A stretch of 64,000 nt of DNA from Thermodesulfobacteriota bacterium (lineage in GTDB: Bacteria > Desulfobacterota > BSN033 > UBA1163). Below are positions 31,891-55,174 of the stretch, piece after piece. Position 1 is the first letter of the stretch, and each line of letters begins with the position of its first letter. The DNA lies in assembly GCA_036769565.1 (NCBI GenBank), contig DAIPKW010000004.1:3669-67668 (forward strand). Direction: 5' to 3'. The position numbers and the translations under genes are program-made. The notes under the pieces were generated by a model. It saw only the letters and a list, made by a program, of their open reading frames with translations, did not search any database and was not told where the DNA came from.

Positions 31891-32649
31891 TCATTTCTTC
31901 TCCATAAAAGGTTTGAGCAGGTCAATGGGAACAGGAAAGATCGTCGTTGAGTTTTTCTCGGTGGCTACTTCGGTTAAGGTCTGAAGGAACCTTAGCTGAA
32001 GCGCTGCAGGATTTGCTCCAATCACACTTGCGGCTTGAGCCAATTTTTCTGCCGCCTGGTATTCTCCATCCGCATGGATCACTTTCGCCCTTCTTTCTCT
32101 CTCTGCCTCGGCTTGGCGAGCAATGGCTCTTCGCATCTCTTCAGGAAGATCGACCTGTTTCGTTTCGACCTTAGAGACCTTGATCCCCCAAGGCTCGGTA
32201 TCCTTATCCAGAATGTCCTGAATATGCATATTGATCTTTTCTCGCTGGGAGAGCAGTTCGTCCAGTTCAGCCTGGCCCACGACACTTCGTAGAGTGGTTT
32301 GGGCTAACTGGGAGGTGGCATAGAGATAGTTTTCCACTTCCACCACTGCCTTATTGGGATCCATTACCCGAAAATAGACAACGGCATTCACTTTGATGGA
32401 AACATTATCTCGGGTGATCACATCTTGGGGGGGAATGTCGAGGGTCACTGTCCGAAGACTGATCTTAATCAACTTATCAATCCCTGGAATGATCAAGATC
32501 AGCCCTGGCCCTTTGGCTCCGATGAGCCTTCCAAGACGGAAGACAACACCCCTCTCGTACTCCCTCAGAATCTTGATGGCGGAAGCAGCCAAGATAAATA
32601 AAAAGACGATCAAGAAAAATAAACCGGATGGAAGTCCTACTGGGCTCAT
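31891..32649 (-). CDS. SPFH/band-7 (stomatin-like) protein
   Basis: N-terminal TM helix, then the band-7 core ('[11 protein letters not shown]...[15 protein letters not shown]') and coiled-coil '[11 protein letters not shown]'. Confidence 0.85.
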
Positions 32650-32664
32650 TTGATTTCCTCCTCT

Positions 32665-33987
32665 TCAGATTTTTTTGACCTTTAAGATTAAATTGGTGAC
32701 TTCAACGACCTGGACTTTTTCTCCCTTTTCAATGGGTTGATCAGCAATAGCATTCCAGAATTCTCCATGAATCGCAACTTTTCCTTCTGGGGTGAGGGGA
32801 ATGGTGACCACTCCTACCTCTCCGATCAATCCTTCCATTCCTGTGGTCGGTTTTGAAAGACGTGCTCGGATGGCCATGGTTACGGCAAAGATGAAGAAAC
32901 CTGCACTGACCAAGACCGCCGGAATGATGACACTTAAGGAGATTCTCATATATTCGGTTGGATTTTCGATCAACATGAGAGATCCCAAAAAGAGTGAAAT
33001 AACACCTCCGACCGATAATAGGCCATGGCTGACCACCTTAATCTCAGCAATGAAGAGGATGATCGCAAAGAGAATGAGGGCCAACCCTGCAAAGTTGATG
33101 GGAAGCATCTGGAGTGCATAGAAGGCAAGGATGAGGAATATCCCGCCAACCACGCCGGGAAGGATAGAACCGGGATTCGAAAGCTCGAAGAAGATACCAT
33201 AGATACCGAGCATCAGTAAGATGTAAGCAATGCTTGGATTGGAGATGATATCGAGAAAACGATAACGCCAACTCATCTCCAGAGGCCGAGGTTGGACCCC
33301 TTTGGTCAGAAGGGTTCGGGTCATACCATCAAACTTGATCACTTTCCCGTCAATCTTACTGAGAAGGTCTTGGATATCTGGGCTGACGAAATCGACCACA
33401 TTCGATTTGACGGCCTCTTCTTCTGTGATGGAAACGCTTTTTCTGACCGCCTTTTCACCCCATTCCATATTTCTTCCTCTGGTTTTGGCGATCGTCTTAA
33501 TATAGGAGACGGTATCATTGACGATCTTTTCTGACATCGTCTTACTCTCCTTTCCTTCGCCAAGCGAGACTGGATGGGCGGCTCCGATATGGGTGCCAGG
33601 CGCCATCGCTGCAATATGGGCAGCCATTGTTATAAAGACCCCTGCTGAGGCGGCCCTCCCTCCACTCGGCGAGACATAGACAATAATTGGAAGGTTGGAG
33701 GTGAGTATCTTTTTAACGATGATCCTCATGGACTCCATCAGGCCTCCAGGGGTATCAAGCTGGATGATGAGGCATTGGGCTCCTTTCTCTGCGGCTTTAT
33801 CAATCGATTCGATAATAAACTTAGAGGTGGCCGGGTTGATGATACCGTCCACTTCAATGACATAGATAGGAGCCTTTTCCTGCGAATGGGAAGGGGTTCC
33901 CAAAGAGAGTGAAAGCCCGATCATGACCAAAACAATGTATATCGTGGAAGAGTATCGTTTCAAATCATTCTCCTTTATTAGAATCAA
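32665..33987 (-). CDS. NfeD-family membrane-bound ClpP-class serine protease
   Basis: Signal peptide, ClpP-like domain ('QLDTPGGLMESMRIIVKKI...SPSGGRAASAGVFI'), multi-TM middle and a C-terminal OB-fold. It is immediately upstream of the SPFH gene. Confidence 0.85.
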   Translation of the reverse strand: MILIKENDLKRYSSTIYIVLVMIGLSLSLGTPSHSQEKAPIYVIEVDGIINPATSKFIIESIDKAAEKGAQCLIIQLDTPGGLMESMRIIVKKILTSNLPIIVYVSPSGGRAASAGVFITMAAHIAAMAPGTHIGAAHPVSLGEGKESKTMSEKIVNDTVSYIKTIAKTRGRNMEWGEKAVRKSVSITEEEAVKSNVVDFVSPDIQDLLSKIDGKVIKFDGMTRTLLTKGVQPRPLEMSWRYRFLDIISNPSIAYILLMLGIYGIFFELSNPGSILPGVVGGIFLILAFYALQMLPINFAGLALILFAIILFIAEIKVVSHGLLSVGGVISLFLGSLMLIENPTEYMRISLSVIIPAVLVSAGFFIFAVTMAIRARLSKPTTGMEGLIGEVGVVTIPLTPEGKVAIHGEFWNAIADQPIEKGEKVQVVEVTNLILKVKKI

Positions 33988-35128: not shown

Positions 35129-36694
35129 ATGGTCATCGTTGGAGATCAACGTGGGATTACGATCCCTGACCTTTCGCGCGATCGAATCGGCATCCCCCGA
35201 TTAAGGGGGGTGCGATTGGTTCATACACACCTAAGAGGGGAGCCTTTGAACGAAGAAGACTTAACGGATCTTGCCCTATTAAGGCTGGACATGATCGTTG
35301 CCCTGACAAGCGATGGCAAGAAGGGGCAAGAAACGATCCACTACGCCCATCTTCTCCCTGACAATCCAGCGAAGAGAGTGTGGGAGGTCGAATCCTCTTG
35401 TTCATGGAATGACTTAGAGATTAATTTTCTGAAATGGGTCCAGTCATTGGAAGATCAGTTTCAGCGAGGCCAGAGGGCAATCTCTACGAAAAGTCGCAAG
35501 GAGAAGGCTATCCTCATCTCGGTCAGTCGAGAGAACCGAGACGTTTTGGAAAACTCCATGGAAGAGTTAAGGGAGTTGGCAGAATCGAGTGGTGTGTTGG
35601 TGGCAGAGACGATCATCCAGAGGCCACAAACGATTTCGCATTCCACGCTGATCGGAGAGGGAAAATTAAGAGAGCTACTTGTGAAGTGTATGCAATTGGG
35701 TGTGGATCTGATCATCTTCGATCAGAATTTAACACCTGGGCAGATGGCTTCGATCTCTGACCTGACCGAATTGAGAGTGATTGATCGAACCCAGCTTATT
35801 CTGGACATCTTTGCCCAGAGGGCCCATACTCGGGATGGGAAGAATCAGGTGGAGCTGGCACAGCTGAAATACTTGCTTCCGCGCCTTGCCAGAAAGACTT
35901 TGGCGCTTTCAAGGCTGACCGGAGGAATTGGAGGAAGAGGGCCAGGAGAAACAAAGCTTGAGATTGATCGGCGAAGGGTGAGGGAGAGGATCCATCTTCT
36001 GGAAAAGGAGCTGGAGCGCTTGAGCCTGCGCAGGGAACAGAGAAGAGCCCTTCGTAAAAAAGCGGGGATTCCCATTCTTTCCATCATCGGATATACGAAT
36101 GCAGGGAAATCAACCCTTTTTAATCTTCTCACGAAGAGCCGCTTTAGCGTGGAGGATAAACTCTTTGCCACATTAGATACAGCCACCCGTAAGTTGAGAT
36201 TGACCAAAGATCTCTGGGTGAAGAGAGAACCCATGGATGTGGTGATTACGGATACGGTCGGTTTTATTAAGGATCTGCCTAAGGATCTATTAGGAGCCTT
36301 TCGACCCACCTTCGACGAGCTCAGGGAATCTGATCTTTTGATTCATCTGGTCGATATCAGCAGTCCGAGACGACAGGAACATATGGAGGCTGTCCAAAAG
36401 ATCCTGATGGAACTTGGATTGGAAGAGATCCCACTCTTTTTAGTTTTCAACAAAGAGGACAGAATGGACCAAGAGGAGGTAAGGGCGCTCTGCAAAAGAT
36501 ACGGTGCTGTATCGATCTCAGCCCTTCGACCAAAAAGCCTCAGCGATTTTTTCATGGAGCTTGAGAGGAAGCTCGAAGAGATTTATTCCTCAAAAATGGA
36601 AGATAGCAAAGTCCTTGACGATTTTTGCAAGATACCCAACGAAGACATCTCCACCGAATTATTGCAACAGGTTGACAAACGGGATTGGGTCTGA
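35129..36694 (+). CDS. hflX: GTPase HflX (with long N-terminal region)
   Basis: 'VIDRTQLILDIFAQRAHTRDGKNQVELAQLKYLLPRL', G1 'GYTNAGKSTLFN' and G3 'DTVGF'. ATG 35129 has SD ggaaggagaggag, but the reading frame stays open upstream to 34919. Confidence 0.85.
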   Translation: MVIVGDQRGITIPDLSRDRIGIPRLRGVRLVHTHLRGEPLNEEDLTDLALLRLDMIVALTSDGKKGQETIHYAHLLPDNPAKRVWEVESSCSWNDLEINFLKWVQSLEDQFQRGQRAISTKSRKEKAILISVSRENRDVLENSMEELRELAESSGVLVAETIIQRPQTISHSTLIGEGKLRELLVKCMQLGVDLIIFDQNLTPGQMASISDLTELRVIDRTQLILDIFAQRAHTRDGKNQVELAQLKYLLPRLARKTLALSRLTGGIGGRGPGETKLEIDRRRVRERIHLLEKELERLSLRREQRRALRKKAGIPILSIIGYTNAGKSTLFNLLTKSRFSVEDKLFATLDTATRKLRLTKDLWVKREPMDVVITDTVGFIKDLPKDLLGAFRPTFDELRESDLLIHLVDISSPRRQEHMEAVQKILMELGLEEIPLFLVFNKEDRMDQEEVRALCKRYGAVSISALRPKSLSDFFMELERKLEEIYSSKMEDSKVLDDFCKIPNEDISTELLQQVDKRDWV

Positions 36695-36803
36695 TATATG
36701 AAATTAAAATTTTTCGATCTCTGATTAGGCGAAGACCCTTTTGAAATCCAGTCTGGGTCATAGTTTGACTAATTCACTTTAGATCGTTGGCAAAAGAGGA
36801 TCG

Positions 36804-38276
36804 ATGATGGAAAACCATCTGCATACCTTTGAGGAATATCTTACCTTCGATGACGTCTTATTGGTCCCTTCTTATTCCGAGGTCTTACCAAAAGAGGTGG
36901 ATATCTCCACCTTACTGACTCGGGAGATCCGGTTGAATATCCCTCTGGTCAGCGCAGCCATGGACACCGTGACTGAGTCAAGGACAGCTATAGCCATGGC
37001 TCAAGAAGGAGGAATAGGAATCATCCACCGCAATCTTTCTATCACGGATCAGGCATTGGAGGTGGATAAGGTGAAGAAGTCGGAGAGTGGAATGATTCTT
37101 AACCCCATCACCATGGATCCTGACCAGAAGATCCACGAAGCCCTGGAGGTGATGAGGAGATACCGGATATCAGGAGTTCCCATCACCCGAGAGGGCAAGC
37201 TCGTTGGAATTCTCACCAACCGAGACCTCCGATTTGAGAAGAGGCTGGACGAGAAGATCTCAACGGTCATGACCAAGGACCGGCTCATCACGGTCCCTGT
37301 GGGAACAACGCTTGAGCAGGCCAAAGAGATCCTTCACCAGAACCGGATCGAGAAATTACTGGTTGTCGATGCTCATAACAATTTGAAAGGTTTGATCACC
37401 ATCAAAGATATCGAGAAGATGAGGAAGTACCCCAACTCTTGTAAGGATGCCCATGGACGGCTTCGAGTGGGAGCGGCGATTGGAACGGGAAAGGATCGGG
37501 AACCGAGAACGGAAGCGCTCATTCGAGCAGGACTCGACGTTCTGGTTATCGATACGGCCCACGGCCATACCAAGGATGTCCTGGAAGCCATCCGTGATAC
37601 AAAAAAGAACTTTCCGGGCTGTCAGTTGATCGCTGGAAACATCGCTACCAGAGAGGGGATGCTCGATCTCATCAAGGCAGGGGTGGATGGGGTTAAGGTT
37701 GGCGTTGGGCCAGGCTCAATCTGTACTACGCGGATTATTGCAGGTGTGGGCGTCCCCCAGCTTTCTGCAATCCGTGAGGTCGCTGAGGTCTCAGAGCAGT
37801 ATGAGATGCCCATCATTGCCGATGGAGGGATTAAATTTTCAGGGGATATCACTAAGGCCCTTGCCGCCGGAGCCCATTCAGTAATGATCGGGAATCTATT
37901 TGCTGGCACCGACGAAAGCCCTGGTGAGATCGTTCTCTACCAGGGGAGAAGCTATAAAGTATATCGGGGTATGGGCTCTTTGGAAGCGATGAGGGAGGGG
38001 AGTAAGGATCGCTACATGCAGGCAGAGGTTGAGAGTGAAACGAAACTGGTTCCCGAGGGAATTGAGGGAAGGGTTCCTTATCGAGGTGCCCTCTCTTTCT
38101 GTATCCATCAGCTCGTTGGTGGACTCAAGGCAGGCATGGGATATATGGGCGCAAAGAATATTCCAGAGATGCGGCAGAAGGCTCGATTCATCCGGATCAC
38201 TTCCTCTGGTTTAAAAGAGAGCCATGTCCATGATGTCATCATTACCAAGGAGGCTCCCAATTATAGATTGGAATAG
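36804..38276 (+). CDS. guaB: IMP dehydrogenase
   Basis: '[10 protein letters not shown]', a CBS pair and the catalytic '[11 protein letters not shown]' loop, 490 aa. Confidence 0.95.
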
Positions 38277-38404
38277 GCTTCTCAAGAGAGAAGAAGATCA
38301 TGAGAACATCCCTCTGGGAGAGATTGAGAGATCTGGACGCCACTCACACCGACCTGTAGAGATAGGGATTTCGGGCAAAGCGAGAAGGGAAAAAGGGGGT
38401 TACC

Positions 38405-40348
38405 TTGAAGAAAAAAACTATTTTGCTCTTGCTTATCATCGTCCTCTCTCTGCTTTACTACCTTGGTTTTCTAACCCGAAAAGAGATGCTTCCCCTATCG
38501 AAGGAATTCCTCTCCGCAGAGAGTTCTTCCACGATCGAACCGGTGCTTGATCTTAAAGGGGTAGGGGTTATCAAATCGAAGATAGCGGAAAGGAAACCCC
38601 CTTCGTTTGATCAGAAGGAGCTGGATCAACTATACCAGATTCAATTAGATAAGGGGGTTCGTAATCTTTCTACGCTCTCTTTATTCCTGGTTAGGGAGGC
38701 CCGAAAAGCGAGGGAATCTGGTCAACTGGATCGCGCCATCGATCTGGCAACCTATGCCCACCGATTTTCACCAAAACTCCCACAGCCCTACTTTGAACTG
38801 GCGAAGGTCCGATGGAAGCAGAAGCCGTTTCAACTCGACGAAATCTTTCCAGAGATCCTAAAGGGATATAGAGCCAAATTCAGCTACTTTCCCTCCTCGC
38901 TTTTCGTCTTTTATAATGGGGTTTACATTCTCTCCAATGCGATCCTAATGGCTTTCATCATTTTTGGGATCATCCTCCTCTGGAAATACTTTCCAATCTA
39001 TCTCTATGATATCCGTAGAAATTTGACGCTTGTGGTTCCCAATCTATTTATCAACGGGTTGAAGATCTTCATTCTTTTTATTCCCTTTTTTCTTCGGTTC
39101 GATATCTTGTGGGCGATTCTCTACTGGAATATTCTTTTATGGGGTTTTGTACCGTCCAGGGAGAGACAGATCGTTTTGGTCTTTTTAATCGTTTTGGTCT
39201 ATTTACCTTTCGTTCTTCGTACCTCCTCCGCATCTTTAAACAGTCCTGCCTCCGAGATTGTCTTGGAGTTACATGAATCGAACTATGAAAACTGGGACAA
39301 GATGACAGAAGAGAAATTGAAATCATGGTTGTTAAACCATCCCGATGACGTTCAGGTTCTTTTCACCCTGGGACTGATCGAAAAGAGGCAGGGACGCTAC
39401 ACGCAAGCCGAAGACTTTTATCGGAGAGTGATCGACTATTCCCCTGAGTTAAGCGAGGCCTATTCCAATCTGGGGAATGTTTATTTAGCACAGAAACAGA
39501 TCCGGATGGCCGTTGAATCCTATCAGCGCGCGGTCGAACTCAATCCAAATAAGGGCGGCTATCACTTCAATCTCTATCGTGCCTATTCTCAAGAAACCTT
39601 TTTCTCAAGTAAATCTGAGGAAGCCTTCCAAATGGCCAGATCCATCGATCCTAAATTGGTTCGGTACTATTCTTCAATCGATTCTCCCAACATGAACCGA
39701 TTGGTCATTGATGAAATTCTGACCCACCAGCAGCTCTGGAATCGATTATTGGATGTTTATACTGGAGGAAAAGGGTTACTGTTTCAATTCTTCAGGGTTT
39801 GGTTTGAAAGGATCCCCTCGGCCATTCCATTTCTATCTCCCATCTTCTTTATAGCCTTCCTGGTCGGGATGTCGAGGTATACACGAGCCAAACGTTTCCT
39901 GACCCGATGTCCAATATGCGGGAATGCGACTCATCGGCTCTATTTAGGCCCATCCACAACCTCAGGAAAGGAATTCATCTGTTTTAACTGCTACCGCCTA
40001 TATGCCCAGAAGGAGAAGGTCCATCCCAAGCTCAAAGAAAAAAAGTCCCTCCAGGTCCATGCCTTTCAGAAACAGGACCATTTTATGGGGACATTTCCTT
40101 CCTACTTCTTTATCGGGTTCAGCCAACTCTGGAGGGGCCATGCGTTCAAGGGATTATTGCTCCTTTCCATCTTTTTCATTATCGTTTTGAGATTTCTCTT
40201 CTGGCATGGAGTCCTTCCTGGGTTGGACCTGGGAGTACTCTTTTCATGGTGGAGCTTCTTTTTTTGGGGAGGCCTTTTCGTTCTCTTCTGGTTTCTCAAC
40301 TTTCGATGGGTTCGTCGCTTAAAGCCAGAGTTCAAGGTTCCCAGATAA
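38405..40348 (+). CDS. polytopic membrane protein with TPR repeats and a C4 zinc-ribbon (function unknown)
   Basis: 647 aa, TTG start with SD aaaaggggg. Signal/anchor, about 4 TM helices, a TPR block ('AEDFYRRVIDYSPELSEAYSNLGNVYLAQKQIRMAVESYQRAVELNP'), one TM helix, 'CPICGN...CFNC', then 2-3 C-terminal TM helices. Confidence 0.55.
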   Translation: MKKKTILLLLIIVLSLLYYLGFLTRKEMLPLSKEFLSAESSSTIEPVLDLKGVGVIKSKIAERKPPSFDQKELDQLYQIQLDKGVRNLSTLSLFLVREARKARESGQLDRAIDLATYAHRFSPKLPQPYFELAKVRWKQKPFQLDEIFPEILKGYRAKFSYFPSSLFVFYNGVYILSNAILMAFIIFGIILLWKYFPIYLYDIRRNLTLVVPNLFINGLKIFILFIPFFLRFDILWAILYWNILLWGFVPSRERQIVLVFLIVLVYLPFVLRTSSASLNSPASEIVLELHESNYENWDKMTEEKLKSWLLNHPDDVQVLFTLGLIEKRQGRYTQAEDFYRRVIDYSPELSEAYSNLGNVYLAQKQIRMAVESYQRAVELNPNKGGYHFNLYRAYSQETFFSSKSEEAFQMARSIDPKLVRYYSSIDSPNMNRLVIDEILTHQQLWNRLLDVYTGGKGLLFQFFRVWFERIPSAIPFLSPIFFIAFLVGMSRYTRAKRFLTRCPICGNATHRLYLGPSTTSGKEFICFNCYRLYAQKEKVHPKLKEKKSLQVHAFQKQDHFMGTFPSYFFIGFSQLWRGHAFKGLLLLSIFFIIVLRFLFWHGVLPGLDLGVLFSWWSFFFWGGLFVLFWFLNFRWVRRLKPEFKVPR

Positions 40349-40360
40349 GGAGAGAGGGAT

Positions 40361-41473
40361 ATGGCTCTACAAGGAACATTAAAGGACTTTAGCATCACAG
40401 AGATTATACAACTGGTTGGCCAACAGCTCAAAACAGGGGTCCTTTGGATACGCCACAGAAAAAAATTGGTCGAAATCTCTTTTGTGGATGGGATGATCGT
40501 CCATGTTCACTCCAATTTCCGGGGGAAGAGAGATCTGATCGGTGAGATTCTCGTCAAGGCCAAATTGATCACCGAAGAACAATTAGAGAGTGTTCTTAAA
40601 ATTCAGAAGGAGACATTGAAGTATACCGGAGAGATTCTGGTGGATCTAGGGCTCTTGACGAAAGAGGAAGTCTTAAGGGTGATTGCAACCCAGGTCTACG
40701 AAACGATCTACGATCTTTTCTGGTGGGAGGATGGGATATTTAGTTTCGATCTCAAAATGGTGGAGAGTTATAAGAAGATTCCATTTGCCCTGAGCACTGA
40801 GCAGGTCCTATTGAACATCCTCCGGATGGTGGATGAGTGGTCAGAGATTGAGAAGAAGATCGTCTCCCTGAACCTCGTCTTGCGAAAATCCTTAAGGAAA
40901 GAAGAACAATCGGACGATATCCTCGCTTCCCAAAACATGTTGCGGGAGAAGTTGTCTTCGGAGCAGGAGTTGCTCTACAACCTTGTCGACGGAACTCGGA
41001 CCGTCCAAGAGATTATTGATCGGAGCCTTTTCGGAAGGTTTAATGCCTGCGAGACCTTGGTCAGTCTTATGGAGATGGGATTGATTGAGGCGGTGGGCAT
41101 AAAGACCCCGACCTTGCTCAAAAAGGTGAGCACGATCAATTTCAAAGAGGCGCTGGCCTTTGCCTATTACGGAGCCTTCTTGATCTTTATCTTTCTCCTC
41201 CTCATCTACTTTAAACCCAATTTTTTACGTCACTTTTGGGACTCGAAGATCGAACGGGTTGATATGGAGACGCCTGCCCTTTTTGTCCACCGAGCTCAAC
41301 TCGACCGGATACGGAACGCACTGGAGATATTCTATTTGGAAAGAGGGGTTTACCCCCAACGGCTTGAGGAGTTGGTGACCGCCCAGCTCCTCCGGAAAAG
41401 CGACCTCTTCTATCACAAAGGGATGTCCTATCAGTATGAGCTGAAAGACGGTAAATATATTTTGAAACATTGA
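40361..41473 (+). CDS. DUF4388-like domain / single TM / GspG-pseudopilin-like C-terminal domain fusion protein
   Basis: N-terminal 'GTLKDFSITEIIQLVGQQLKTGVLWI' is a DUF4388-type motif. TM helix 'ALAFAYYGAFLIFIFLLLIYF'. C-terminal 'RNALEIFYLERGVYPQRLEELV...SYQYELKDGKY' resembles the GspG pseudopilin fold ('YRLDNGRYPTTEQGLQALV...YQY'). Confidence 0.5.
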   Translation: MALQGTLKDFSITEIIQLVGQQLKTGVLWIRHRKKLVEISFVDGMIVHVHSNFRGKRDLIGEILVKAKLITEEQLESVLKIQKETLKYTGEILVDLGLLTKEEVLRVIATQVYETIYDLFWWEDGIFSFDLKMVESYKKIPFALSTEQVLLNILRMVDEWSEIEKKIVSLNLVLRKSLRKEEQSDDILASQNMLREKLSSEQELLYNLVDGTRTVQEIIDRSLFGRFNACETLVSLMEMGLIEAVGIKTPTLLKKVSTINFKEALAFAYYGAFLIFIFLLLIYFKPNFLRHFWDSKIERVDMETPALFVHRAQLDRIRNALEIFYLERGVYPQRLEELVTAQLLRKSDLFYHKGMSYQYELKDGKYILKH

Positions 41474-41532
41474 AGCCCAGTCATTCCCGTTGATCTCATT
41501 CCTCTCTCATCCCATGATACCGAAGGAAAAGA

Positions 41533-43092
41533 ATGAGCCCTTCTTCCAATTTCGATAAAATTCTTATCCTCGATTTTGGTTCCCAGTATACCCAATTGAT
41601 CGCCCGTCGCGTGAGAGAATGTCGGATCTATAGCGAGATTCAACCTTACGATTTTCCACTGGAGAGAATCAAAACCCTCTCTCCCCAAGGGATCATTCTC
41701 TCAGGAGGGCCTTCGAGTGTTTATGAGCTGGGAGCCCCTTCCTGCGATCAAAGGCTTTTCGACATGGGGATTCCCATTTTAGGAATCTGTTATGGGATGC
41801 AGTTAATCGGCGAACTCTTAGGGGGAGAGGTCGCCCATTCTGAGAAAAGGGAGTATGGAAAAATTCGTTTGACGATCGATCGTGGGGGAAGCCTGTTTAA
41901 AGGGGTTGGAAGAAAAGGAGATTCGTTCCAAGTCTGGATGAGCCACGGCGATCAGATCCGGCGTTTGCCCCGTGGATTTCATGCTTTGGCCCATTCGAGC
42001 CATACACCTTTTGCTGCCATCGGAGATTCGAAAAGAAAGATTTACGGACTTCAATTTCATCCCGAGGTGGTCCACACGCTTCACGGGATTGACATTCTCC
42101 GAAATTTTCTATTCCATGTTTGTGGCTGCCAACGTCTTTGGGACATGCGTTCGTTCTTAGAGGAGGCGACGCTTCAACTGAAGAAGCGGATCGGTTCGGG
42201 AAGGGTGATCTGCGGTTTGAGCGGAGGCGTCGATTCTACAGTGGTTGCTCTTCTTCTGCATCGAGTGATCGGAGATCATTTAAAATGTATCTTTGTCAAT
42301 AATGGACTTTTGAGGCGGAATGAAGCCTCGCAGGTCGTAGAACTCTTCACGCAACATTTCCATATTCCACTCATCTATGTGGATGCTGAGAAGCGGTTTT
42401 TAAAACGGCTCAAGGGGGTAACAGATCCGGAGGAGAAGCGGAAGCGGATCGGTAGAGAGTTTATTGCCGTTTTTGAAAAGGAGGCAAGAAAGATTGGAGG
42501 CGTAAAGTTTCTTGCACAGGGGACCCTCTATCCCGATGTGATTGAAAGCACCTCTTGGAAGGGACCCTCCGCAATGATCAAAAGCCACCATAATGTAGGT
42601 GGATTGCCGGAGAAGATGCGGTTAAAGCTGGTGGAACCCTTACGAGAATTGTTTAAGGACGAAGTGAGAGCTTTGGGCAGAGAGCTGGGTCTTCCTCGGG
42701 AGGTGATCCAGAGGCAACCTTTTCCCGGGCCAGGGCTGGCTGTCCGAATCATCGGCGAGGTCGATCAAGAGAGGCTTGAAATTTTAAGGGATGCCGATGC
42801 GATCGTCATGGAAGAGATGAAGAAGAACGATTTGTTAGACCGGGTCTGGCAATGCTTTGCGGTCCTTCTGCCGATTAAGACCGTTGGTGTCATGGGCGAT
42901 TTCCGAACTTATGAGCATGTGGTTGCCTTGAGGATTGTGGAGAGCCAAGACGGCATGACCGCCGATTGGGTCAAGCTGGACCATCGAATCTTAGAACAGA
43001 TGGCAAACCGAATCATCAATGAAGTCAGAAAAGTGAATCGAGTCGTGTATGACATCAGTTCGAAACCACCCAGCACGATAGAATGGGAGTAA
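41533..43092 (+). CDS. guaA: GMP synthase (glutamine-hydrolysing)
   Basis: GATase domain ('GICYGMQL'), PP-loop 'SGGVDSTV' and a 'KPPSTIEWE' C-terminus, 519 aa. Confidence 0.95.
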
Positions 43093-43125
43093 GTCGAAGA
43101 GATATCGAAGTCCGAATATCGTCAT

Positions 43126-43149
43126 GCCAGAGGCAGATCCGCCTCTGGC
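43126..43149 (+). other. perfect 9-bp hairpin (gccagaggc-agatcc-gcctctggc) after guaA; no U-tract
   Basis: Seen in the sequence. Confidence 0.3.
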
Positions 43150-43315
43150 AGAAAATACGAATCAAATCCAAATTTTCAAAATTCAAATGGTTTGAGCTTT
43201 TTTGTTTCGAACATTTTTAAAATGGTCATTTGAGATGGTTTCGAATTTCAAATTTGTGTTTCGGAGTTCAATCCAACCTTGACATTTCTCTTTTAGCATT
43301 TGAAAGTTAAGTGAT

Positions 43316-46300
43316 ATGTCACATAACGAATTTATCCACCTCCATCTTCATAGCCAATATAGCCTTCTGGACGGTGCCATCCGATTCGAGGAGCTCTTCG
43401 ATCTGGCGAGAAAATACCGGATGGATACTGTAGCGCTGACCGATCATGGAAATATGTTTGGGGCGGTTGAATTTTATCAGACGGCGATCAAGTACGGAAT
43501 TAAACCCATCTTGGGATGCGAAATCTATGTGGCTCCAGGAAGTCGATTCGAGAAGAAGACCGTTGCAGAGGGAGGGGAAGGGGCTTACCATCTCACCCTT
43601 CTGGTGAAAAATAGGACCGGTTATTTTAACCTCATCAAACTGATCAGTCTTGCCCATCTTGAGGGGTTTTATTATAAGCCGAGAGTGGATAAAGAGCTTT
43701 TAAGTCAATATCATGAAGGGCTGATCTGTCTCAGCGGATGCCTGAAAGGGGAGATTGCTATTTTGGCCGCCCGGGGTGAGATGAAGAAGGCTTTCCAGGT
43801 TGCTGAAGAATATCGGCGCATCTTTGATGATCGACGATTTTTTATCGAACTTCAGAAGAATGGGGCTGAAAACCAGACCCTTATCAATGAACGCCTCCTT
43901 GAGATCAGCCGAGAATCTTTTTTGCCAATCGTGGCGACTAATGATTGTCATTACCTCCATCGGGAGGATGCTCCAGCCCACGAAGTCTTACTCTGCCTCC
44001 AGACGGGCAAGACCCTCAACGATAAAGACCGGATGAGGTTTTCTTCCGACGAATTTTACTTCAGGTCGCCCCAGGAGATGATGAATCTGTTCAGAGAGAC
44101 CCCAGAGGCCATAGCCCACACCTTGGAGATTGCAGAGGGTTGTAATCTGGAGTTGAAGTTCGAAGAGAAACATATTCCTCGAATTACCGTCCCTACTGGA
44201 GAGTCACCAGAGAGCCATCTCGAAAGGCTTGCTCGGGAAGGATTGGAAAGAAGGCTTCAAGCTTACCGGGATACGAAAGATTTTGACGAGCGGGTTCTCC
44301 GATATCGGCATCGTCTGGAAGAGGAGCTGAAGATCATCAAGTCTATGGGGTATCCAGGCTATTTTTTGATCGTGGCTGATTTTATCCATTACGCCAAAAA
44401 GAAAGGGATTCCCGTCGGACCTGGAAGAGGGTCTGTGGCCGGAAGCTTGGTTGCCTATGCACTTGAGATTACCGATTTGGACCCCATTGAGTACGACCTC
44501 ATCTTTGAGAGGTTTTTAAATCCAGGTCGAAAGAGCAGCATGCCAGATGTGGATGTCGATTTCTGTATGGTGGGAAGGGATGAGGTGATCCAGTATGTGA
44601 TGGCGAAGTATGGGAAGGAGAATGTTGCCCAGATCATCACCTTCGGTAAGATGCAGGCAAGGGCTGTGATTCGAGATGTGGGTAGAGTCATGGGTATTCC
44701 CTATGCAGAAGTGGACCGGATCGCCAAACTCATTCCAGGTGGTCCCAATATTACCCTGACCGAAGCCCTCGAAAGGGAACCTCAACTGAAGGAGATGATT
44801 CAGGTTGATCCAAGGATCGCCTCTCTCTTTAAGATTGCTCGATCTTTGGAGGGGCTGGTCCGGCATGCCTCCACCCATGCGGCCGGCATTGTCATTTCGA
44901 ATCGACCTTTGGTCGATTACCTTCCCCTTTATCGCGGGCAGGACGGTGAGGTGGTTACCCAGTATGCGATGAAAGAGGTGGAGGCCATCGGACTGGTCAA
45001 ATTCGATTTTTTAGGGCTAAAAACGCTCACGATGATGAATCATGCCATTCAACTCATCGAGAAGAATCAGGGGATCCAGATTGAACTCTCGAAGATTCCC
45101 CTCAATGACCCACAGGTGTTTGCCTCCCTTGGATCCGGATCCAATCTCGGTCTCTTCCAGTTAGAAAGTTCTGGAATGAGAGACTTGTTGATTAAACTCA
45201 AACCCGAGAGCTTTAAAGATATCGTCGCTCTGGTTGCGCTTTACCGACCAGGTCCCATTGATAGTGGGATGGTGGAGGAGTTTGTCAAACGAAAACATGG
45301 GAAAGTCTCCATCTCTTATGAAATCCCTGCGCTTGAAGAAATTCTGAAGGATACCTATGGGGTCATTGTCTATCAGGAGCAGGTGATGCGGATTGCGAGT
45401 AGCCTGGCGAACTTTACACTTGAAGATGCCGATAATCTGCGAAGGGCCATGGCCAAGAAGGACCCTGCGGAGATGGAGAAACAGAAGGAAAAATTTTTGG
45501 AGGGGTCGAAAAAGAATCGGATCCCAACCAAGAAAGCCGAAAAAATTTTTGACCAGATGGAGACCTTTGGCCGTTATGGCTTCAATAAATCTCATAGTGC
45601 GGCCTATGCGCTCATCGCCTATCAAACCGCCTATCTGAAGACACATTACCCTATTGAATTTATGGCAGCCCTGTTGACAAGCGAGGTTCAGAGTGCCGAT
45701 AAGATGGTAAGGTATCTTGCCGAATGTCGGGAGATGGCCATTCCCATTCTGCCTCCGGATATCAATGAAAGCCAGCGAGACTTTGCGGTGGTGGGAAATC
45801 AGATTCGGTTTGGCCTGGCAGCTGTCAAGAATGTGGGAGAAGCAGCTATTGAGGCCATCCTCAAAGAGAGGGAGGAGAAAGGGAAATTTGGTTCCCTGTT
45901 CGATTTCTGTCGCCGGGTTGATTTGAGAAAAGTGAACCGTCGGGTGATCGAAAGTCTGATCAAATGTGGCGCCTTCGATTTTTCTAAAGCCCATCGCTCC
46001 CAGATGTTAGCGGTGTTGGAGGAGATCGTGGAGCGATCCCAAACCGCGCAACGCAAGAGAGATGCAAATCAGTTGAGCATGTGGGAGTCCCCTCATGATC
46101 AGAGCGAAGAGACCTATCCTGAAATGGAGGAGTTTTCCGAAAACCAGTTGATCCTTTTTGAAAAAGAGATAATCGGGTTTTATATTTCCCGTCATCCCCT
46201 ATCTGCCTATCAGGAGGCGATCAAGCGATGGTCGACTGAAGACACTTCCACCCTTCTCCAACGACAGAACGGTCAGGAGGTGAAGCTCTGTGGTCTGGTC

Positions 46301-49582: not shown

Positions 49583-50986
49583 TTAGGACTCGTCCATTGG
49601 GTCCGGTCCCTGATTCAAACCATATTTTTCCAGTCGGTAGCGCATCGATCGAAAATTAATATGGAGTAATTCAGCGGCCTTCTTTTTAATCCCCTTTGTC
49701 CTTTCGAGGGCTTTCAGGAGAAGGGTCTTCTCGATCTCCTCCACCATCTTTTCGAGATCGATCCCTTCATTCGGAATCTCAAGATCCAGAGGGCTTTTGG
49801 GAACCTGAAGTTGTTCTTCAAGGTAGGAATGGATATTCTGGGCGGTCAACTCCTGAGAGGTCTCAAGGGCAACAGCCCTCTCAACGATATTCTGGAGCTC
49901 TCTCACATTTCCAGGATAGTCATATTGGATCAGCATCCGGAGCGCTTCAGGAGTGATATGGGAGATGGGCTTTCCAAGCTCTCCGGAGTATCGCTTTAAA
50001 AAATGGTTGGCCAGGGCCGGAATATCTTCCTTTCGCTCCCGGAGTGGGGGGAGCTTGATCTGAATGACATTGAGTCGGTAGAAGAGGTCTTCTCGAAACA
50101 GTTTCTTTTGAACGGCTTCTTCCAGGTCTTTATTGGTTGCAGAGATGATCCGAACATCGACTCGAATATCTTCCGTTCCTCCCACGCGCTTAAATTCTCG
50201 ATCCTGTAAGACGCGAAGCAATTTGACCTGCATCATTAAGGGAAGCTCACTGATTTCATCCAAAAAGAGCGTTCCCTCATCCGCTAACTCAAACAGCCCC
50301 TTTTTCGTGGTAATGGCATCGGTAAAGGCTCCCTTCATATGGCCAAAGAGTTCGCTCTCGATCAGGGCTTCAGGAATGGCGCCACAGTTTAAGTTAACGA
50401 AGGGTTTCTCCTTACGCGGGCTATTATAGTGAATGGCTTTGGCCACCAGCTCCTTTCCTGTTCCACTCTCACCCGTGATCAAAATGTTGGTTTTGGTAGG
50501 AGCCACCCTCTCCAGAAGGTCATAGAGCTCAAGCATTCTAGGACTCTGGCCAATGATATTTCCATAATGGTATCGATCCCGGACCACCTGTTTGAGCAGG
50601 AGGTTTTCCCTCTGAAGATGCCTCTTCTCCAGAGCATTCTGAATGATCATCTTGATCTCATCGATCTTAAACGGTTTGGTGATATAGTCATAAGCCCCCT
50701 CCTTCATCGCCTTAATGGCCGTATCGGCTGAGGCATACGCAGTAATCATGATCACAATGGTCTCTGGAGAGACCGATTTAATCTTCTTGAGAGCAGAGAG
50801 GCCATCCTGCCTGGGCATTCGGATATCCACGAGGGCCAGATCGAAGATCTCCTTTTCAATCAACTTGATCACCTCTTCACCATTCGAGGCGAGTGTGACC
50901 TTATAGCCCTCCTTTTTGAGCATGATCTCAAGAAATTCCCTCATGCTCTTTTCATCATCCGCGACCAGAATCTTATCTTGAACCAT
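49583..50986 (-). CDS. pilR: sigma-54-dependent response regulator (NtrC family; PilR-like by context)
   Basis: REC domain ('ILVADDE...DLALVDIRMP'), sigma-54 AAA+ core ('GESGTGKE', 'GAFTDA', 'ESELFGH') and a C-terminal Fis-type HTH. It is directly downstream of a PilS-like kinase and the pilBTC genes. Confidence 0.8.
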   Translation of the reverse strand: MVQDKILVADDEKSMREFLEIMLKKEGYKVTLASNGEEVIKLIEKEIFDLALVDIRMPRQDGLSALKKIKSVSPETIVIMITAYASADTAIKAMKEGAYDYITKPFKIDEIKMIIQNALEKRHLQRENLLLKQVVRDRYHYGNIIGQSPRMLELYDLLERVAPTKTNILITGESGTGKELVAKAIHYNSPRKEKPFVNLNCGAIPEALIESELFGHMKGAFTDAITTKKGLFELADEGTLFLDEISELPLMMQVKLLRVLQDREFKRVGGTEDIRVDVRIISATNKDLEEAVQKKLFREDLFYRLNVIQIKLPPLRERKEDIPALANHFLKRYSGELGKPISHITPEALRMLIQYDYPGNVRELQNIVERAVALETSQELTAQNIHSYLEEQLQVPKSPLDLEIPNEGIDLEKMVEEIEKTLLLKALERTKGIKKKAAELLHINFRSMRYRLEKYGLNQGPDPMDES

Positions 50987-51001
50987 TCTCGTCTTCAGTC
51001 C

Positions 51002-52729
51002 TCATTGGGCTTGATGAATATCGGGTTCAGCAGGCAGGAAGATCGTAAAGGTGGACCCTCTGCCCATTTCACTCTCCACCTTGATCCCTCCATTATGGTT
51101 TTCAATAATTTTATGGACGATCGAGAGTCCCAACCCCGTTCCTCCTTCTTTGGTGGAATAGAAAGGCTCAAAGATTTTCTCCTTTTCTTGGGGCGGGATA
51201 CCGTTCCCAGAATCGGCAATGACAATCTTCACCCAAGCCTCTCCAACCCCTGACGAACCTGAAGGAAGGTTTCCTCCCCAAGCCTCCTCGGTCTTCTCAA
51301 CGGAGATCCGAATCTCACCCCTTTCCGGGATGGCCTGAGCGGCATTGATCAGCAGATTCCAAAAGACCTGCCTCATCTGATCCGCATCGATCAAGGCCAA
51401 CATTTCACCGTTGGGTTGGCTTCGGGTAATCTGGAGCCCCTCATGAAAGGCCTGAGAGTGGATGAAGAGCTCAACGGTCTCGTCGAGGATCTTTCCAACC
51501 TCCCAAAGCGATCGTCTCATTTGAGGAGGATGAGCGAAGTAGAGGAAGTCAGTGATCAATGAATTGAGTCGTTCCGACTCTCTGAGCGTGATCTCCATCA
51601 AATGGTTCTGTTGTGGGTCGAGGTGAAGCTCCGACTTTAACATCTGGATGGCACCGCTCAGCGATGCAAGAGGGTTTCGAATCTCATGGGCCATCCCCGC
51701 TGCCAAGGAACCAATGGCAGCCATTCGGTCATGTCGCTTCATCTGTTCTTCCATCTCTTTAACCCGGGTGATGTCCTGAAAGATGAGGGTATGTCCGATC
51801 AAATCCCCTTTGGGATCGGTCAGAGGAGAGATGGAAAACCCTAAGTAGAAAGACCCATCGTGAGGGGTGGGAAGACGGGCCTCGTAACGCTGGTAATCGG
51901 TTGGAAGACTCGGTTTTCGTTTCATTTCCTCGATAACCCTGCTGATCTCGGGGAAAAGACCGTCTATAGAAAGACCTCTCAATTCAATTCCCTTCCGGTT
52001 TAGGATCTTTTCTGCGGTACGGTTGAGGAAATTGATCCGTCCATCCAGATCAATAGTGAGCAGACCACTGTCGAGGCTATTCACGATATTCCGGTTGAAG
52101 ATCTCAAGTTGATCATAATCTGCCTGTTTCTGAATCAGTTCGCCCTTTTTCTTCTTTAATTCCTCAGAGATCATACTGCTCAGAAAGGCGACGATATAAT
52201 AGGCGGCTAAATAGATGACCAGGGAGTAAAAGATCTGACTGGCCTCAGGCGGATCGAGCTGACCTGGGAGACGGACCCACTCATAGAGTTGAAACAGAAG
52301 GATCAGACCATAAAGAAAGGTGGAGAGGGATGCTGAATAGAAAGCTCCCCGCTTGTAGAAGAGGATACTGCAGCCGATGATCGAGAAGATGTAAACGATC
52401 GGGAAGAAGCTCTCCTTTCCGCCCGTATAGTAGATGAGACCTGCAATGAAAAGATGGTCAATGGCGATCTGAACAATCATGAAACGACGAAGATCATTGA
52501 CCCGTTTCAGGAGAAGAACATAGGCGATTGTGAGCAGATAGAAGAGCATGATGAAATAGTAGAATTGGTTGGTGGTCGGAATGAAGAAGTACTTCTTCTC
52601 GTAGATTTGGAAAAGATAGGTAATGGTCAGTAAGAGGGTAAGAATGATTACCCGGCCGAGCATCAATCCCAATACATTTTTATACATTCGTTGTTGGGTG
52701 CTGGCGAGAACGTTAAGATTTGGCCCCAT
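51002..52729 (-). CDS. pilS: sensor histidine kinase with N-terminal multi-TM domain, PAS, HisKA, HATPase (PilS-like)
   Basis: About 6 N-terminal TM helices, a PAS segment and an H-box 'MAHEIRNPLASLSGAIQML'. The ATP-binding N and G boxes are 'NLLINA' and 'GTGLGLSI'. It is paired with the sigma-54 regulator. Confidence 0.75.
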   Translation of the reverse strand: MGPNLNVLASTQQRMYKNVLGLMLGRVIILTLLLTITYLFQIYEKKYFFIPTTNQFYYFIMLFYLLTIAYVLLLKRVNDLRRFMIVQIAIDHLFIAGLIYYTGGKESFFPIVYIFSIIGCSILFYKRGAFYSASLSTFLYGLILLFQLYEWVRLPGQLDPPEASQIFYSLVIYLAAYYIVAFLSSMISEELKKKKGELIQKQADYDQLEIFNRNIVNSLDSGLLTIDLDGRINFLNRTAEKILNRKGIELRGLSIDGLFPEISRVIEEMKRKPSLPTDYQRYEARLPTPHDGSFYLGFSISPLTDPKGDLIGHTLIFQDITRVKEMEEQMKRHDRMAAIGSLAAGMAHEIRNPLASLSGAIQMLKSELHLDPQQNHLMEITLRESERLNSLITDFLYFAHPPQMRRSLWEVGKILDETVELFIHSQAFHEGLQITRSQPNGEMLALIDADQMRQVFWNLLINAAQAIPERGEIRISVEKTEEAWGGNLPSGSSGVGEAWVKIVIADSGNGIPPQEKEKIFEPFYSTKEGGTGLGLSIVHKIIENHNGGIKVESEMGRGSTFTIFLPAEPDIHQAQ

Positions 52730-52841
52730 AGAACTCGATCATTGGTCTTCATTGAGGCTGGCTAATTTCAGTAAGCCCTGTTTGAAAGTTTTTAACTTTC
52801 TAACGGGAAGTTTCACAGCCCAATAGAAGCTCAGCAAGCAA

Positions 52842-54047
52842 TTACCCAACGGCCGATGCCATCTGAAAGATCGGTAGATACATGGCAATGACAACTCCTC
52901 CGATCACGACTCCCAGAAAGATCATCAGAAAAGGTTCGAGAAGGGAGGTCATATTGCCTACAGCCACGTCAACCTCTTCTTCGTAGAAATCGGCGATCTT
53001 TGCCAACATGGAGTCCAAGGCGCCTGTCGATTCTCCTACGGAGATCATCTGGATGACCATGGGTGGAAAGATCCCACTGCGGCCCAAAGGCTCAGAAATG
53101 GTTTCGCCCTCTCGGATGCTTGCCCTTGCTTCGAGTATGGCTGTCTCAATTGTCCGATTTCCGGCTGTCTTCGAAACGATCATGAGCCCGTCAAGGATGG
53201 GAACGCCACTGCTGACGAGTGTCCCAAGGGTCCTTGAAAATCGGGCTACGGCAACTTTTTTAAGAAGCATTCCGAAGACAGGCAGCTTCAGAAGAAGGGG
53301 ATCGACGATCGTCTTTCCTGCCTCGGTCTTATAAAACTTCCGGAAAAGATAGACCAAGAGAATCGCCAAAGGAATAAGGACGATGATATATTTTTTGATA
53401 AATTTGCTTAGGGTGAGAACGATAAGGGTCGGTAGTGGAAGCGACTGACCAGCGGATTTGAACATCGTCTCAAAGACAGGGATGACGAAGATCATCAAGA
53501 TCATCACCACCATCACCGCAACCGTCACGATGATGCCAGGATAGATCAGGGCGCCCTTAACTTTCTTTTTTAAGGCTTCTGCCTTTTCAATGTAGTTGGC
53601 CAATCGGAGCAGAATATTGTCGAGGATTCCACCTTCCTCACCGGCCACCACCAAGTTCGTGTAGAGATCATCGAAAGTGCCGGGATGTTTTTTGAGAGAT
53701 CCGGCAAAGGTGGAACCTCCTTCGACATCCTCTCGTAAATCACGAATGATATTTTTAAAAATCTTGTTCTCCTGTTGGGAGGCGAGGATATCGAGCGATT
53801 GGACCAGAGGTAATCCGGCATCAATCATCGTTGCCAATTGACGGGTGAAGATGGCGACGAGTCGCTGCTTCACCTTCTTACCAAATGGCAGGGAAATCTT
53901 AACCGCTCTTCCTTTGGCCGTGATTTTGGTGGGAATAATGTTCTGTTGGTGAAGTTGGATGCGGATGGCAGCCTCGCTCGGAGCTTCCATCTCTCCCTTT
54001 TTGATCAATCCCTTGCCTGTTTTCCCTTCCCATTGGTAGATTGGCAT
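52842..54047 (-). CDS. pilC: type IV pilus assembly platform protein PilC (GspF family)
   Basis: 401 aa with two T2SSF repeats and 3 TM helices. It sits in a pilB-pilT-pilC operon. Confidence 0.9.
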   Translation of the reverse strand: MPIYQWEGKTGKGLIKKGEMEAPSEAAIRIQLHQQNIIPTKITAKGRAVKISLPFGKKVKQRLVAIFTRQLATMIDAGLPLVQSLDILASQQENKIFKNIIRDLREDVEGGSTFAGSLKKHPGTFDDLYTNLVVAGEEGGILDNILLRLANYIEKAEALKKKVKGALIYPGIIVTVAVMVVMILMIFVIPVFETMFKSAGQSLPLPTLIVLTLSKFIKKYIIVLIPLAILLVYLFRKFYKTEAGKTIVDPLLLKLPVFGMLLKKVAVARFSRTLGTLVSSGVPILDGLMIVSKTAGNRTIETAILEARASIREGETISEPLGRSGIFPPMVIQMISVGESTGALDSMLAKIADFYEEEVDVAVGNMTSLLEPFLMIFLGVVIGGVVIAMYLPIFQMASAVG

Positions 54048-54073
54048 AATCCCTCCCCTTCCCCTATCTCCGT

Positions 54074-55174
54074 TTAAATGACCTGTTTCCCAATCTTTCT
54101 ATAGGGGATATTCGCATTGGTTAGCATCTGATAGAACTCTTCCAAGTTATGGCTTCGGTCGATGGCGTCTTCCACAGAGATGAGATGGCGTTCGACAAGG
54201 GCGAGGAGTGCCTGGTTCATGGTCTGCATACCGAATTTTGACTGACCGACCTGCATCTGGGAGTAGATCTGTTGAACTTTGTCCTCACGGATCAGGTTTC
54301 GAATGGCAGCGGTTGGGATCATCAACTCCATGGCCATGACACGACCTTTCCCACGCATTCTTGGAATGAGCTGTTGGGACATAACTCCCTCAAGGACGAA
54401 GGAGAGCTGTGTCCGCACCTGTTGTTGTTGATGAGGAGGAAAGACGTCAATGATCCGGTTGATCGTCTCGACGCAGGAATTCGTATGGAGCGTTGCAAAG
54501 GTGAGATGGCCTGTCTCTGCGGTGAGGAGGGCGGCCTGAATCGTCTCAAGATCCCTCATTTCGCCGATGAGGATAATATCGGGATCCTGACGCAGAATAT
54601 GCTTAAGGGCATAGCCAAAACCTTTTGTATCGGAGTAAATCTCCCTCTGATTGACGATGGAATTTTTATGGCGATGGATATATTCAATCGGATCTTCGAT
54701 CGTCACAATATGGGCGTTCCGATCATTATTGATCTTGTCGATCATGGCTGCAAGGGTGGTCGATTTTCCCGAACCCGTAGGGCCTGTTACGAGAACGAGG
54801 CCCTTGGGTCTCTTAATCAACTCATTCACAGCAGGTGGAATTCCAAGTTCATGGAAGTTGAGGATATTGAATGGGATGGCACGGAAGACGCCCGCCACAG
54901 CTCCCCTCTGCATAAAGATATTTCCACGGAAACGGCTTAACCCTTTTATGCCAAAAGAGAAATCTAACTCTATCTCTTCCTCGAACGTGTGGCGCTGGGC
55001 ATCGGTCAGAACGCTGTAGCAGAGCCTTTTCGTATCGGTAGGGGTAAGGATAGTATTATCGAAGCTCACCAGCTTTCCGTCAATCCTGAACTTTGGTGGG
55101 ACGCCTGTTGTAATGTGCAAATCAGAGGCCTTCTTTTCGATCATCGTTTCAAGCAGTTTCTCTAACTCGATCAT
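54074..55174 (-). CDS. pilT: type IV pilus retraction ATPase PilT
   Basis: Walker A 'GPTGSGKST', the 'AIRNLIREDKVQQIYS' PilT signature and 366 aa. Confidence 0.9.
   Translation of the reverse strand: MIELEKLLETMIEKKASDLHITTGVPPKFRIDGKLVSFDNTILTPTDTKRLCYSVLTDAQRHTFEEEIELDFSFGIKGLSRFRGNIFMQRGAVAGVFRAIPFNILNFHELGIPPAVNELIKRPKGLVLVTGPTGSGKSTTLAAMIDKINNDRNAHIVTIEDPIEYIHRHKNSIVNQREIYSDTKGFGYALKHILRQDPDIILIGEMRDLETIQAALLTAETGHLTFATLHTNSCVETINRIIDVFPPHQQQQVRTQLSFVLEGVMSQQLIPRMRGKGRVMAMELMIPTAAIRNLIREDKVQQIYSQMQVGQSKFGMQTMNQALLALVERHLISVEDAIDRSHNLEEFYQMLTNANIPYRKIGKQVI

Follow-up and report, generated by a model that had tools for sequence, protein, structure and literature searches.

A 64,000-nucleotide stretch of DNA from a Thermodesulfobacteriota bacterium (assembly GCA_036769565.1, contig DAIPKW010000004.1, positions 3,669 to 67,668; referred to in its entirety as the window) carries on its forward strand a pair of closely spaced genes, the second of which encodes a protein that combines a PATAN domain with a domain resembling the head of the pseudopilin GspG. 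The open reading frame of this second gene, confirmed at exactly 40361..41473 (+), begins with ATG and specifies 370 residues; an independent gene call on public contigs gives the same 370-residue product, with a precomputed annotation to the same PF14332 family. The product is very probably a bitopic inner-membrane protein composed of a PATAN module, a single transmembrane (TM) helix and a truncated, periplasmic head of the GspG type, made with, and probably working with, the TPR-containing membrane protein encoded by the first gene. The ~260 N-terminal residues form the best-conserved part of the protein in the alignment. A gap of 12 nucleotides separates the stop codon of the partner gene from the start of the PATAN gene and, together with a Shine-Dalgarno-like site that overlaps this stop codon, is consistent with co-translation of the pair. 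A promoter and terminator scan of positions 36500-43400 gave results at chance level, with no terminator-like site above chance between the paired genes. The coordinates of all features are collected in Table 1.

Relatives of the fusion protein were sought in one genome per GTDB species, using a nine-sequence alignment as the query, and were found to be encoded by at least 574 species genomes. Analyses of loci cover the best 80 of these, and counts over 81 loci include the window. All but four of the best 80 match over essentially the full length. The first group among them derives from Thermodesulfobacteriota metagenome-assembled genomes, some labelled Syntrophaceae or Syntrophorhabdus (69-79% identity), the second from more distant Thermodesulfobacteriota (41-52%) and the third from Myxococcota (Archangium minus Cbm 6, Anaeromyxobacter, Hyalangium and others) and Acidobacteriota, whose proteins still match over essentially their full length at 31-37% identity. 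The same fusion, for which a preliminary description of this DNA had proposed a search, is abundant among homologues. A homologue of the partner gene lies immediately upstream, on the same strand, in 81/81 loci across the three phyla, and is the only invariant neighbour. The zinc-ribbon-like element of the partner consists of four invariant cysteines (C502, C505, C526 and C529) in a strongly basic loop. Its predicted topology would comprise eight helices that satisfy the positive-inside rule, so that the TPR region would face the periplasm and the zinc-ribbon loop the cytoplasm.

Table 1. Positions in the window of the gene pair, of the segments of the fusion protein and of the type IVa pilus genes.
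Feature	Position	Strand	Description
Partner gene	38405..40348	+	647-residue polytopic membrane protein; TPR repeats (~residues 310-395), zinc-ribbon-like CxxC...CxxC loop
Shine-Dalgarno-like AAGGAG	40347..40352	+	Overlaps stop codon of partner gene, 8 nt before ATG
Whole PATAN gene	40361..41473	+	370-residue bitopic protein: PATAN with alpha-clip, winged-helix-like region, TM helix, GspG-like head
PATAN N-terminal half, residues 4-56	40370..40528	+	Rich in beta-strand; PF14332 profile positions 1-76 from residue 4; strands 26-51 in AlphaFold2 model
Alpha-clip/MshEN-like insertion, residues 57-113	40529..40699	+	NF053729 match; MshE and PilF alignments
PATAN C-terminal half, residues 114-161	40700..40843	+	PF14332 profile positions 77-122, E=8.8e-8
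Linker and helical, tentatively winged-helix-like region, residues 162-255	40844..41125	+	Cytoplasmic; weak TrmB match (E=0.05-0.09), AlphaFold2
Single TM helix, residues 264-285	41150..41215	+	Hydropathy; one segment in homologues; N-side positive-inside bias
Periplasmic linker, residues 286-302	41216..41266	+	Length and sequence vary among distant homologues; low pLDDT
GspG-family (PF08334) pseudopilin head, residues 303-370	41267..41470	+	Alpha1C-like helix, GxYP loop, beta-sheet ending 'SYQYELKDGKYILKH'; no Ca-binding C-terminal loop
Type IVa pilus gene block	49583-56999	-	pilB, pilT and pilC with kinase and sigma-54 regulator
Sigma-54 response regulator	49583-50986	-	
PAS-type histidine kinase	51002-52729	-	
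pilC	52842-54047	-	
pilT	54074-55174	-	
pilB	55206-56999	-	TIGR02538, 771 bits

Cytoplasmic module and membrane topology

The N-terminal part of the protein matches PF14332 (DUF4388, now PatA_N, the PATAN domain) in Pfam with E=2.1e-30 and 105.7 bits against a cut-off of 25. The DUF4388-type domain that the preliminary description had recognized from a short motif is therefore borne out, the quoted motif lying inside this match, and members of the family are labelled 'DUF4388 domain-containing protein' in databases. One Myxococcaceae cluster, which carries both PF14332 and PF08334, is instead labelled 'ComGC'. The domain is divided into two halves by an insertion, the alpha-clip, and is followed by a region (residues 162-255) in which a full-length AlphaFold2 model places helices at 185-238 and a strand at 242-247 with a low to moderate predicted local distance difference test score (pLDDT); its assignment as a winged helix is tentative. 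This model, built from 35 close homologues, reached a pLDDT of 54.7 and a predicted template modelling score (pTM) of 0.29 and is usable only for the C-terminal part of the protein.

A PF14332 domain split by an alpha-clip and followed by ~100 further residues is also found in the PatA-type PATAN-REC regulators of cyanobacteria (PatA, PixG, PixE and LsiR). Unlike these, the window protein lacks a receiver domain, with no Response_reg (REC) match at E<=1 in Pfam, and carries a TM helix and a periplasmic pseudopilin head in its place. Because the helix and head replace the receiver domain, it would be an integral membrane protein that is not controllable by phosphorylation. The families also differ in distribution, as the one described here occurs in Thermodesulfobacteriota, Myxococcota and Acidobacteriota and not in cyanobacteria.

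Residues 264-285 form the sole hydrophobic segment (Kyte-Doolittle 2.5) and no N-terminal signal peptide was found, the N-terminus reading MALQGTLKDF. The preliminary description had placed an internal TM helix at about residue 270 and the C-terminus outside the cytoplasm, and the comparison of homologues agrees with both. Exactly one TM segment is present in 80/80 homologues, 82-133 residues from the C-terminus, and the 15 residues preceding it contain more lysine and arginine than the 15 following it in 59 homologues and fewer in 5, counts which describe a trend rather than an independent test as the sequences are related. The cytoplasmic type of the N-terminal module, the single TM segment and the excess of positive charge on its N-terminal flank together suggest that the C-terminal domain resides in the periplasm.

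A head domain related to GspG

The preliminary description had likened the C-terminal segment to GspG, and the second of the motifs that it quoted lies, within the same open reading frame, inside a weak match to the GspG family T2SSG. Taken alone, the window protein remains below the cut-off of this family (21 bits), both as a whole (E=0.11, 13.0 bits) and as an isolated head domain (E=0.0085, 16.6 bits), and a phmmer search of the single C-terminal domain against PDB sequences returned no pseudopilin, giving chance matches only (Cas13a, E=3.2). The relationship becomes apparent through the family. When residues 287-370 were compared exhaustively with 1.84 billion cluster representatives in HMMER, only 49 proteins were identified at E<=1e-3, many of them proteins of 360-420 residues that share the same architecture at 31-48% identity, with the head at the extreme C-terminus. 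Divergent homologues of this architecture score above the T2SSG cut-off, namely P0162 (35.3 bits), P0148 (27.7), P0143 (27.6), P0135 (21.2) and P0134 (21.1); the match of P0162 (E=1.3e-8) spans profile positions 13-100 of 108, and the full GspG signature 'DPWGKEYLYE...SSGLDGKKGTPDDIE' is retained in some distant homologues. T2SSG is matched at E<=0.01 by 24/29 C-terminal segments of the family (best E=2.9e-10), with no competing family. A profile of the family head was needed to reach the GspG structures in the PDB, for which the single head sequence was insufficient, and its top eight matches were all GspG/EpsG/XcpT (2kep, E=1.1e-4, followed by 3gn9, 3fu1, 4lw9, 1t92, 5wda, 3g20 and 29jd, to E=0.08). 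Two blocks in collinear order make up the match, one covering the alpha1C helix together with GxYP and the other the 'DPWGxxYxY' strand. At the level of sequence, homology of the head to GspG is well supported by these results. Profiles A2 and A4 were used for two further word-indexed searches, which added little, as one recovered chiefly the close clade already found and the other fragments only.

Structure prediction points in the same direction. An AlphaFold2 model of the head, based on an alignment of family segments (pLDDT 84.5, pTM 0.69), consists of a helix of 26 residues (303-328), a loop that includes two short helices, a pair of strands and a bridge, whilst the full-length model resolves a three-stranded sheet; pLDDT values for the head range over 88-98 for the domain model and 81-87 for the full-length one. 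A pilin-like fold, such as the preliminary description had proposed, is thus predicted with confidence for residues 303-370, with a long helix, a GxYP loop and an antiparallel sheet. A Foldseek comparison of the head with the PDB produced nothing significant (best E=1.5, all E above 1), and among its non-significant best matches 10 of the top 13 were type IV pilins or pseudopilins, including PilA1 (TMq 0.58-0.59), EpsG, CofA, PilJ and PilA4. The predicted fold is consistent with homology to GspG, without being decisive. That the resemblance is a chance similarity of a short helix-plus-hairpin segment, as the sub-threshold Pfam scores of the window protein, the single-domain phmmer search and the Foldseek values could be taken to imply, is hardly credible and was rejected, given the transitive homology through members above the cut-off with near full-length profile coverage, the agreement of most family members and the exclusive ranking of GspG-type structures.

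The features shared with GspG, PulG, EpsG and XcpT comprise the alpha1C helix ('AL-x-x-Y-x-L-x-x-G-x-YP...L-x-x-LV') and the 'DPWG-x-x-Y-x-Y' strand region, which reads 'HKGMSYQYE' in the window protein; the predicted fold, a helix with an antiparallel sheet, is compatible with theirs. Despite this, the protein differs from GspG in lacking a class III signal peptide, an N-methylation site and Glu5, in having its hydrophobic helix at an internal position, separated by a linker from alpha1C, and in preceding the head with a cytoplasmic domain of ~260 residues; the gene also lies outside any gsp operon. The Ca-binding C-terminal loop of GspG (S-x-G-x-DG...D-x-DI) is likewise missing from the window clade, the protein stopping at '...YELKDGKYILKH' with nothing beyond the last strand, and only some distant homologues, P0162 among them, have retained it. 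This clade therefore has a minimal form of the head.

The protein is not a pilin. Neither the class III leader, or prepilin motif, G|F(T/S)L(I/L)E nor Glu5 occurs anywhere in its 370 residues, and a scan with prepilin regular expressions revealed no convincing prepilin in the window and no pilin genes in the 80 loci. The TM helix follows 263 cytoplasmic residues, and a variable linker modelled with low confidence separates it from the alpha1C-like helix at 303-328. Lacking a prepilin leader, Glu5 and an uninterrupted hydrophobic alpha1N helix, the head cannot serve as a subunit of a filament, and with the operon context failing as well the protein is not a pilin or pseudopilin precursor. A processed precursor would require an exceptionally long cytoplasmic leader, cut by prepilin peptidase in or before the TM helix, to release a product that assembles into a filament. 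Homology of the head to GspG would fit such a scheme, as would Gly271, a conserved residue of the TM helix that is followed by hydrophobic residues. However, the actual sequence at this point (YYG-AFLIF) lacks both the motif and a Glu at +5, the glycine is lost from distant homologues, the intervening 17-residue linker is variable and predicted to be non-helical, and the N-terminal ~260 residues are the most conserved, unlike a discarded leader. This explanation was rejected on these grounds and has a very low probability. The arrangement also differs from that of modular (minor) pilins such as Caulobacter CpaL, in which a pilin-fold module is similarly fused to an unrelated domain. In those proteins the pilin module is N-terminal, with the usual leader and alpha1N, and is incorporated at the tip of the filament, and the extra domain is located C-terminally and extracellularly; the window protein has the opposite domain order, and its extra domain is cytoplasmic.

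Other proteins recovered with the head vary in form. P0133, P0158 and P0160 are secreted or lipoprotein-like, with 2-4 tandem copies of the head, and lack both a PATAN domain and a prepilin leader; P0133 contains four repeats of a Cys-rich variant. Their existence without pilin features implies that the head has been reused outside filaments and suggests that it is a mobile periplasmic or extracellular module. P0132, P0138, P0141, P0150 and P0154 (99-148 residues) consist of a TM helix and head only and may represent either stand-alone forms or gene calls truncated at contig ends. P0131, a protein of 316 residues with four near-identical repeats of ~77 residues, matches only the helix part of the query and is probably no relative, resembling instead the translation of a DNA repeat.

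Possible functions of the gene pair

By analogy with the cyanobacterial PATAN proteins, our preferred, though tentative, reading is that the gene pair couples or regulates the type IVa pilus machine across the membrane. In cyanobacteria, PATAN is the only domain shown to signal directly to the PilB/PilC motor. The PATAN module of PixE (residues 1-258) binds the N-terminal domains of PilB1 and PilC, suffices for output and localizes to the membrane (bioRxiv 10.1101/2021.06.11.447907). In the proposed mechanism, PATAN would engage, on the cytoplasmic side, the N-terminal region of PilB, the cytoplasmic domain of PilC or both, as it does in Synechocystis. On the periplasmic side, a site at which pilin heads are normally recognized, for example in the alignment complex, the pilin pool or the priming complex, would be occupied or sensed by the tethered pilin-like head. 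The TPR domain of the partner may join in the periplasmic contact, and the periplasmic state would in this way tune pilus extension. A further link to pili is that the window itself carries pilB, pilT and pilC at 52842-56999. From the domain content we infer that the protein may be a pilus or secretion accessory component, the role that the preliminary description had put forward.

GspL of the type II secretion system (T2SS) and the PilM-PilN pair of the type IVa pilus couple the assembly ATPase to (pseudo)pilins and the alignment complex across the membrane. The window protein would follow the same logic, with a cytoplasmic domain, one TM helix and a periplasmic domain. This resemblance is an analogy of architecture only, as no match to T2SSL, PilM, PilN or PilO was found in the protein at E<=1 in Pfam and NCBIfam, and its periplasmic domain is pilin-like and not ferredoxin-like. 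A more specific version of the coupler reading, which must be regarded as doubtful, is that the pair constitutes a trans-envelope feedback device of the type IVa pilus, in which the head, by mimicking a pilin head, monitors either the machine's state in the periplasm or the pool of pilins in the membrane, and PATAN relays this directly to PilB/PilC. If so, it would be a phosphorylation-independent, membrane-integral counterpart of the PatA-type regulators, widely conserved and previously unrecognized.

Several observations weigh against a role in pilus assembly. The preliminary description had raised the prospect of homologues beside pil or gsp genes, and this expectation failed, with no pil or gsp gene consistently linked in the 80 related loci. 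The neighbours are housekeeping genes that depend on the phylum, comprising guaB, guaA, dnaE, accA and mutL in Thermodesulfobacteriota and phoH, a gene for a 7TM-HD protein, ybeY, lnt and prfB in Myxococcota. In the window, the type IVa pilus genes lie 8-15 kb from the gene pair with four housekeeping genes between, and elsewhere the only pil gene within 10 kb is a pilT paralogue, in 7 loci. The sub-threshold T2SSG scores and the Foldseek result reported above belong on the same side. Furthermore, interaction of PATAN with PilB/PilC, which is established for PixE and PixG in Synechocystis (bioRxiv 10.1101/2021.06.11.447907), is known only for cyanobacterial PatA-type proteins.

An alternative that is nearly as likely as the pilus reading is that the pair forms a pilus-independent module of the cell envelope or of polarity. 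Here the head would be a small periplasmic protein-binding domain, for example a ligand of the partner's TPR region, and PATAN would connect to a different cytoplasmic system, for instance one for cell division, gliding, polarity of the MglA type or biogenesis of the envelope. The invariance of the TPR membrane protein, set among remaining neighbours that are housekeeping genes and differ between phyla, favours this view, as does the reuse of GspG-like heads in the secreted tandem-repeat proteins and lipoproteins. Moreover, Myxococcus xanthus possesses more than a dozen PATAN proteins, the role of which is unknown (bioRxiv 10.1101/2021.06.11.447907). However, both a PATAN domain with a PilB-like alpha-clip and a pseudopilin head belong to the world of type IV filaments, and the only PATAN domains studied experimentally act on PilB/PilC. 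In addition, type IVa pili are common in all three of the phyla that carry the family, Thermodesulfobacteriota, Myxococcota and Acidobacteriota.

A third explanation, in which the protein is a membrane-anchored receptor for cyclic di-GMP (c-di-GMP) that binds the nucleotide through its alpha-clip and signals across the membrane to the head and partner, is improbable. It arises from the resemblance of the alpha-clip to the MshEN/GSPII domains of MshE, PilF and PilB. The alpha-clip consists of two tandem 24-residue helical-hairpin repeats, LIGEILVKAKLITEEQLESVLKIQ and YTGEILVDLGLLTKEEVLRVIATQ, which lie 29 residues apart, as in MshE. Residues 57-113 match the NCBIfam model NF053729 ('cyclic di-GMP-binding domain, MshE-related') at 52.2 bits, above its cut-off of 38, residues 57-119 align to Vibrio cholerae MshE (5htl, E=2e-5) with the correct 5-residue spacer between the repeats, and a further alignment (E=6e-9) relates the region to all three GSPII repeats in the PilF of Thermus (6f8l). 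The conserved Gly, hydrophobic and terminal Gln positions of the MshEN repeats are kept. The relaxed MshEN motif of Wang et al. 2016 comprises two 24-residue stretches of [RKPN]hGxxhhxx[GAS]hhxxxxhxxxhxx[QNKRYWST] with 5 residues between (PMC5013675). Although the spacing agrees, neither repeat of the window protein fits this sequence. The first begins with L and has Lys at position 10, where MshEN has a small residue, and the second begins with Y-T, so that the position-1 arginines of both repeats, Arg9 and Arg38 of MshE, are replaced by Leu59 and Tyr88. Among 81 family members, both repeats fit in 0/81 and one repeat in 15/81. The repeats are, moreover, embedded in the PATAN domain rather than located at the N-terminus of an ATPase. 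An alpha-clip insertion is a general feature of PATAN domains, and the same repeat is found at the N-terminus of T2SS and type IV pilus ATPases (bioRxiv 10.1101/2021.06.11.447907). Because the relaxed motif fails in both repeats and across the family, the alpha-clip is treated here as a putative structural or protein-binding element for which canonical c-di-GMP binding is unlikely. A canonical MshEN site was rejected, both arginines being replaced and the relaxed motif unmatched in either repeat.

Almost all known pilin-fold domains belong to subunits that are anchored at their N-terminus, processed and polymerized, and a GspG-type head that is permanently tethered behind a large cytoplasmic domain would represent an inverted use of the fold. 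No published account of the fusion or of the gene pair was found in the literature on DUF4388/PATAN, on PATAN combined with pseudopilin, GspG-like or pilin-like domains or on the M. xanthus PATAN loci MXAN_3211 and MXAN_4965. Whilst both domains are of known kinds, their combination, their orientation and the fixed partner are apparently undescribed. Conservation across three phyla, the constant TPR partner and its occurrence in organisms related to genetically tractable myxobacteria make the family a testable candidate for control of pilus assembly across the membrane. If the pilus-independent explanation is correct, pilin heads would have been recruited as general periplasmic interaction modules.

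Neighbouring genes and other features of the window

The TPR/PATAN pair is situated between guaB and guaA (36804-43092, +). The order guaB-pair-guaA-dnaE is kept in Thermodesulfobacteriota homologues that share only 41-52% identity with the window protein (L028-L030 and L038-L042), and in Myxococcota the pair precedes phoH, the 7TM-HD gene and ybeY. In seven loci of Anaeromyxobacteraceae type (L055, L057, L058, L069, L072, L073 and L080), the opposite strand encodes a PilT-family ATPase paralogue with 37-39% identity to the PilT of the window, at a distance of 8-9 kb downstream from the pair.

Within the type IVa pilus block, the PAS kinase and sigma-54 regulator may be PilS/PilR-like; the kinase/regulator pair that follows mutL is syntenic in ~20 related Thermodesulfobacteriota loci. 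Residues 3-55 of the window PilB score 52.6 bits against the MshE-related c-di-GMP motif model. Both arginines are kept in this protein, but RLA and RLE stand for RLG and the published relaxed motif is not matched.

Elsewhere in the window, the usual stomatin-NfeD pair is encoded at 31891-33987 (-), consisting of an SPFH/Band 7 protein and a membrane protease-like NfeD protein. Two different fructose-1,6-bisphosphatase genes, one of the FBPase_3 type and one of the classical FBPase type, are located within 4 kb at 23380-24480 and 26012-27001 (+), and are adjoined by a class II aldolase-like gene.

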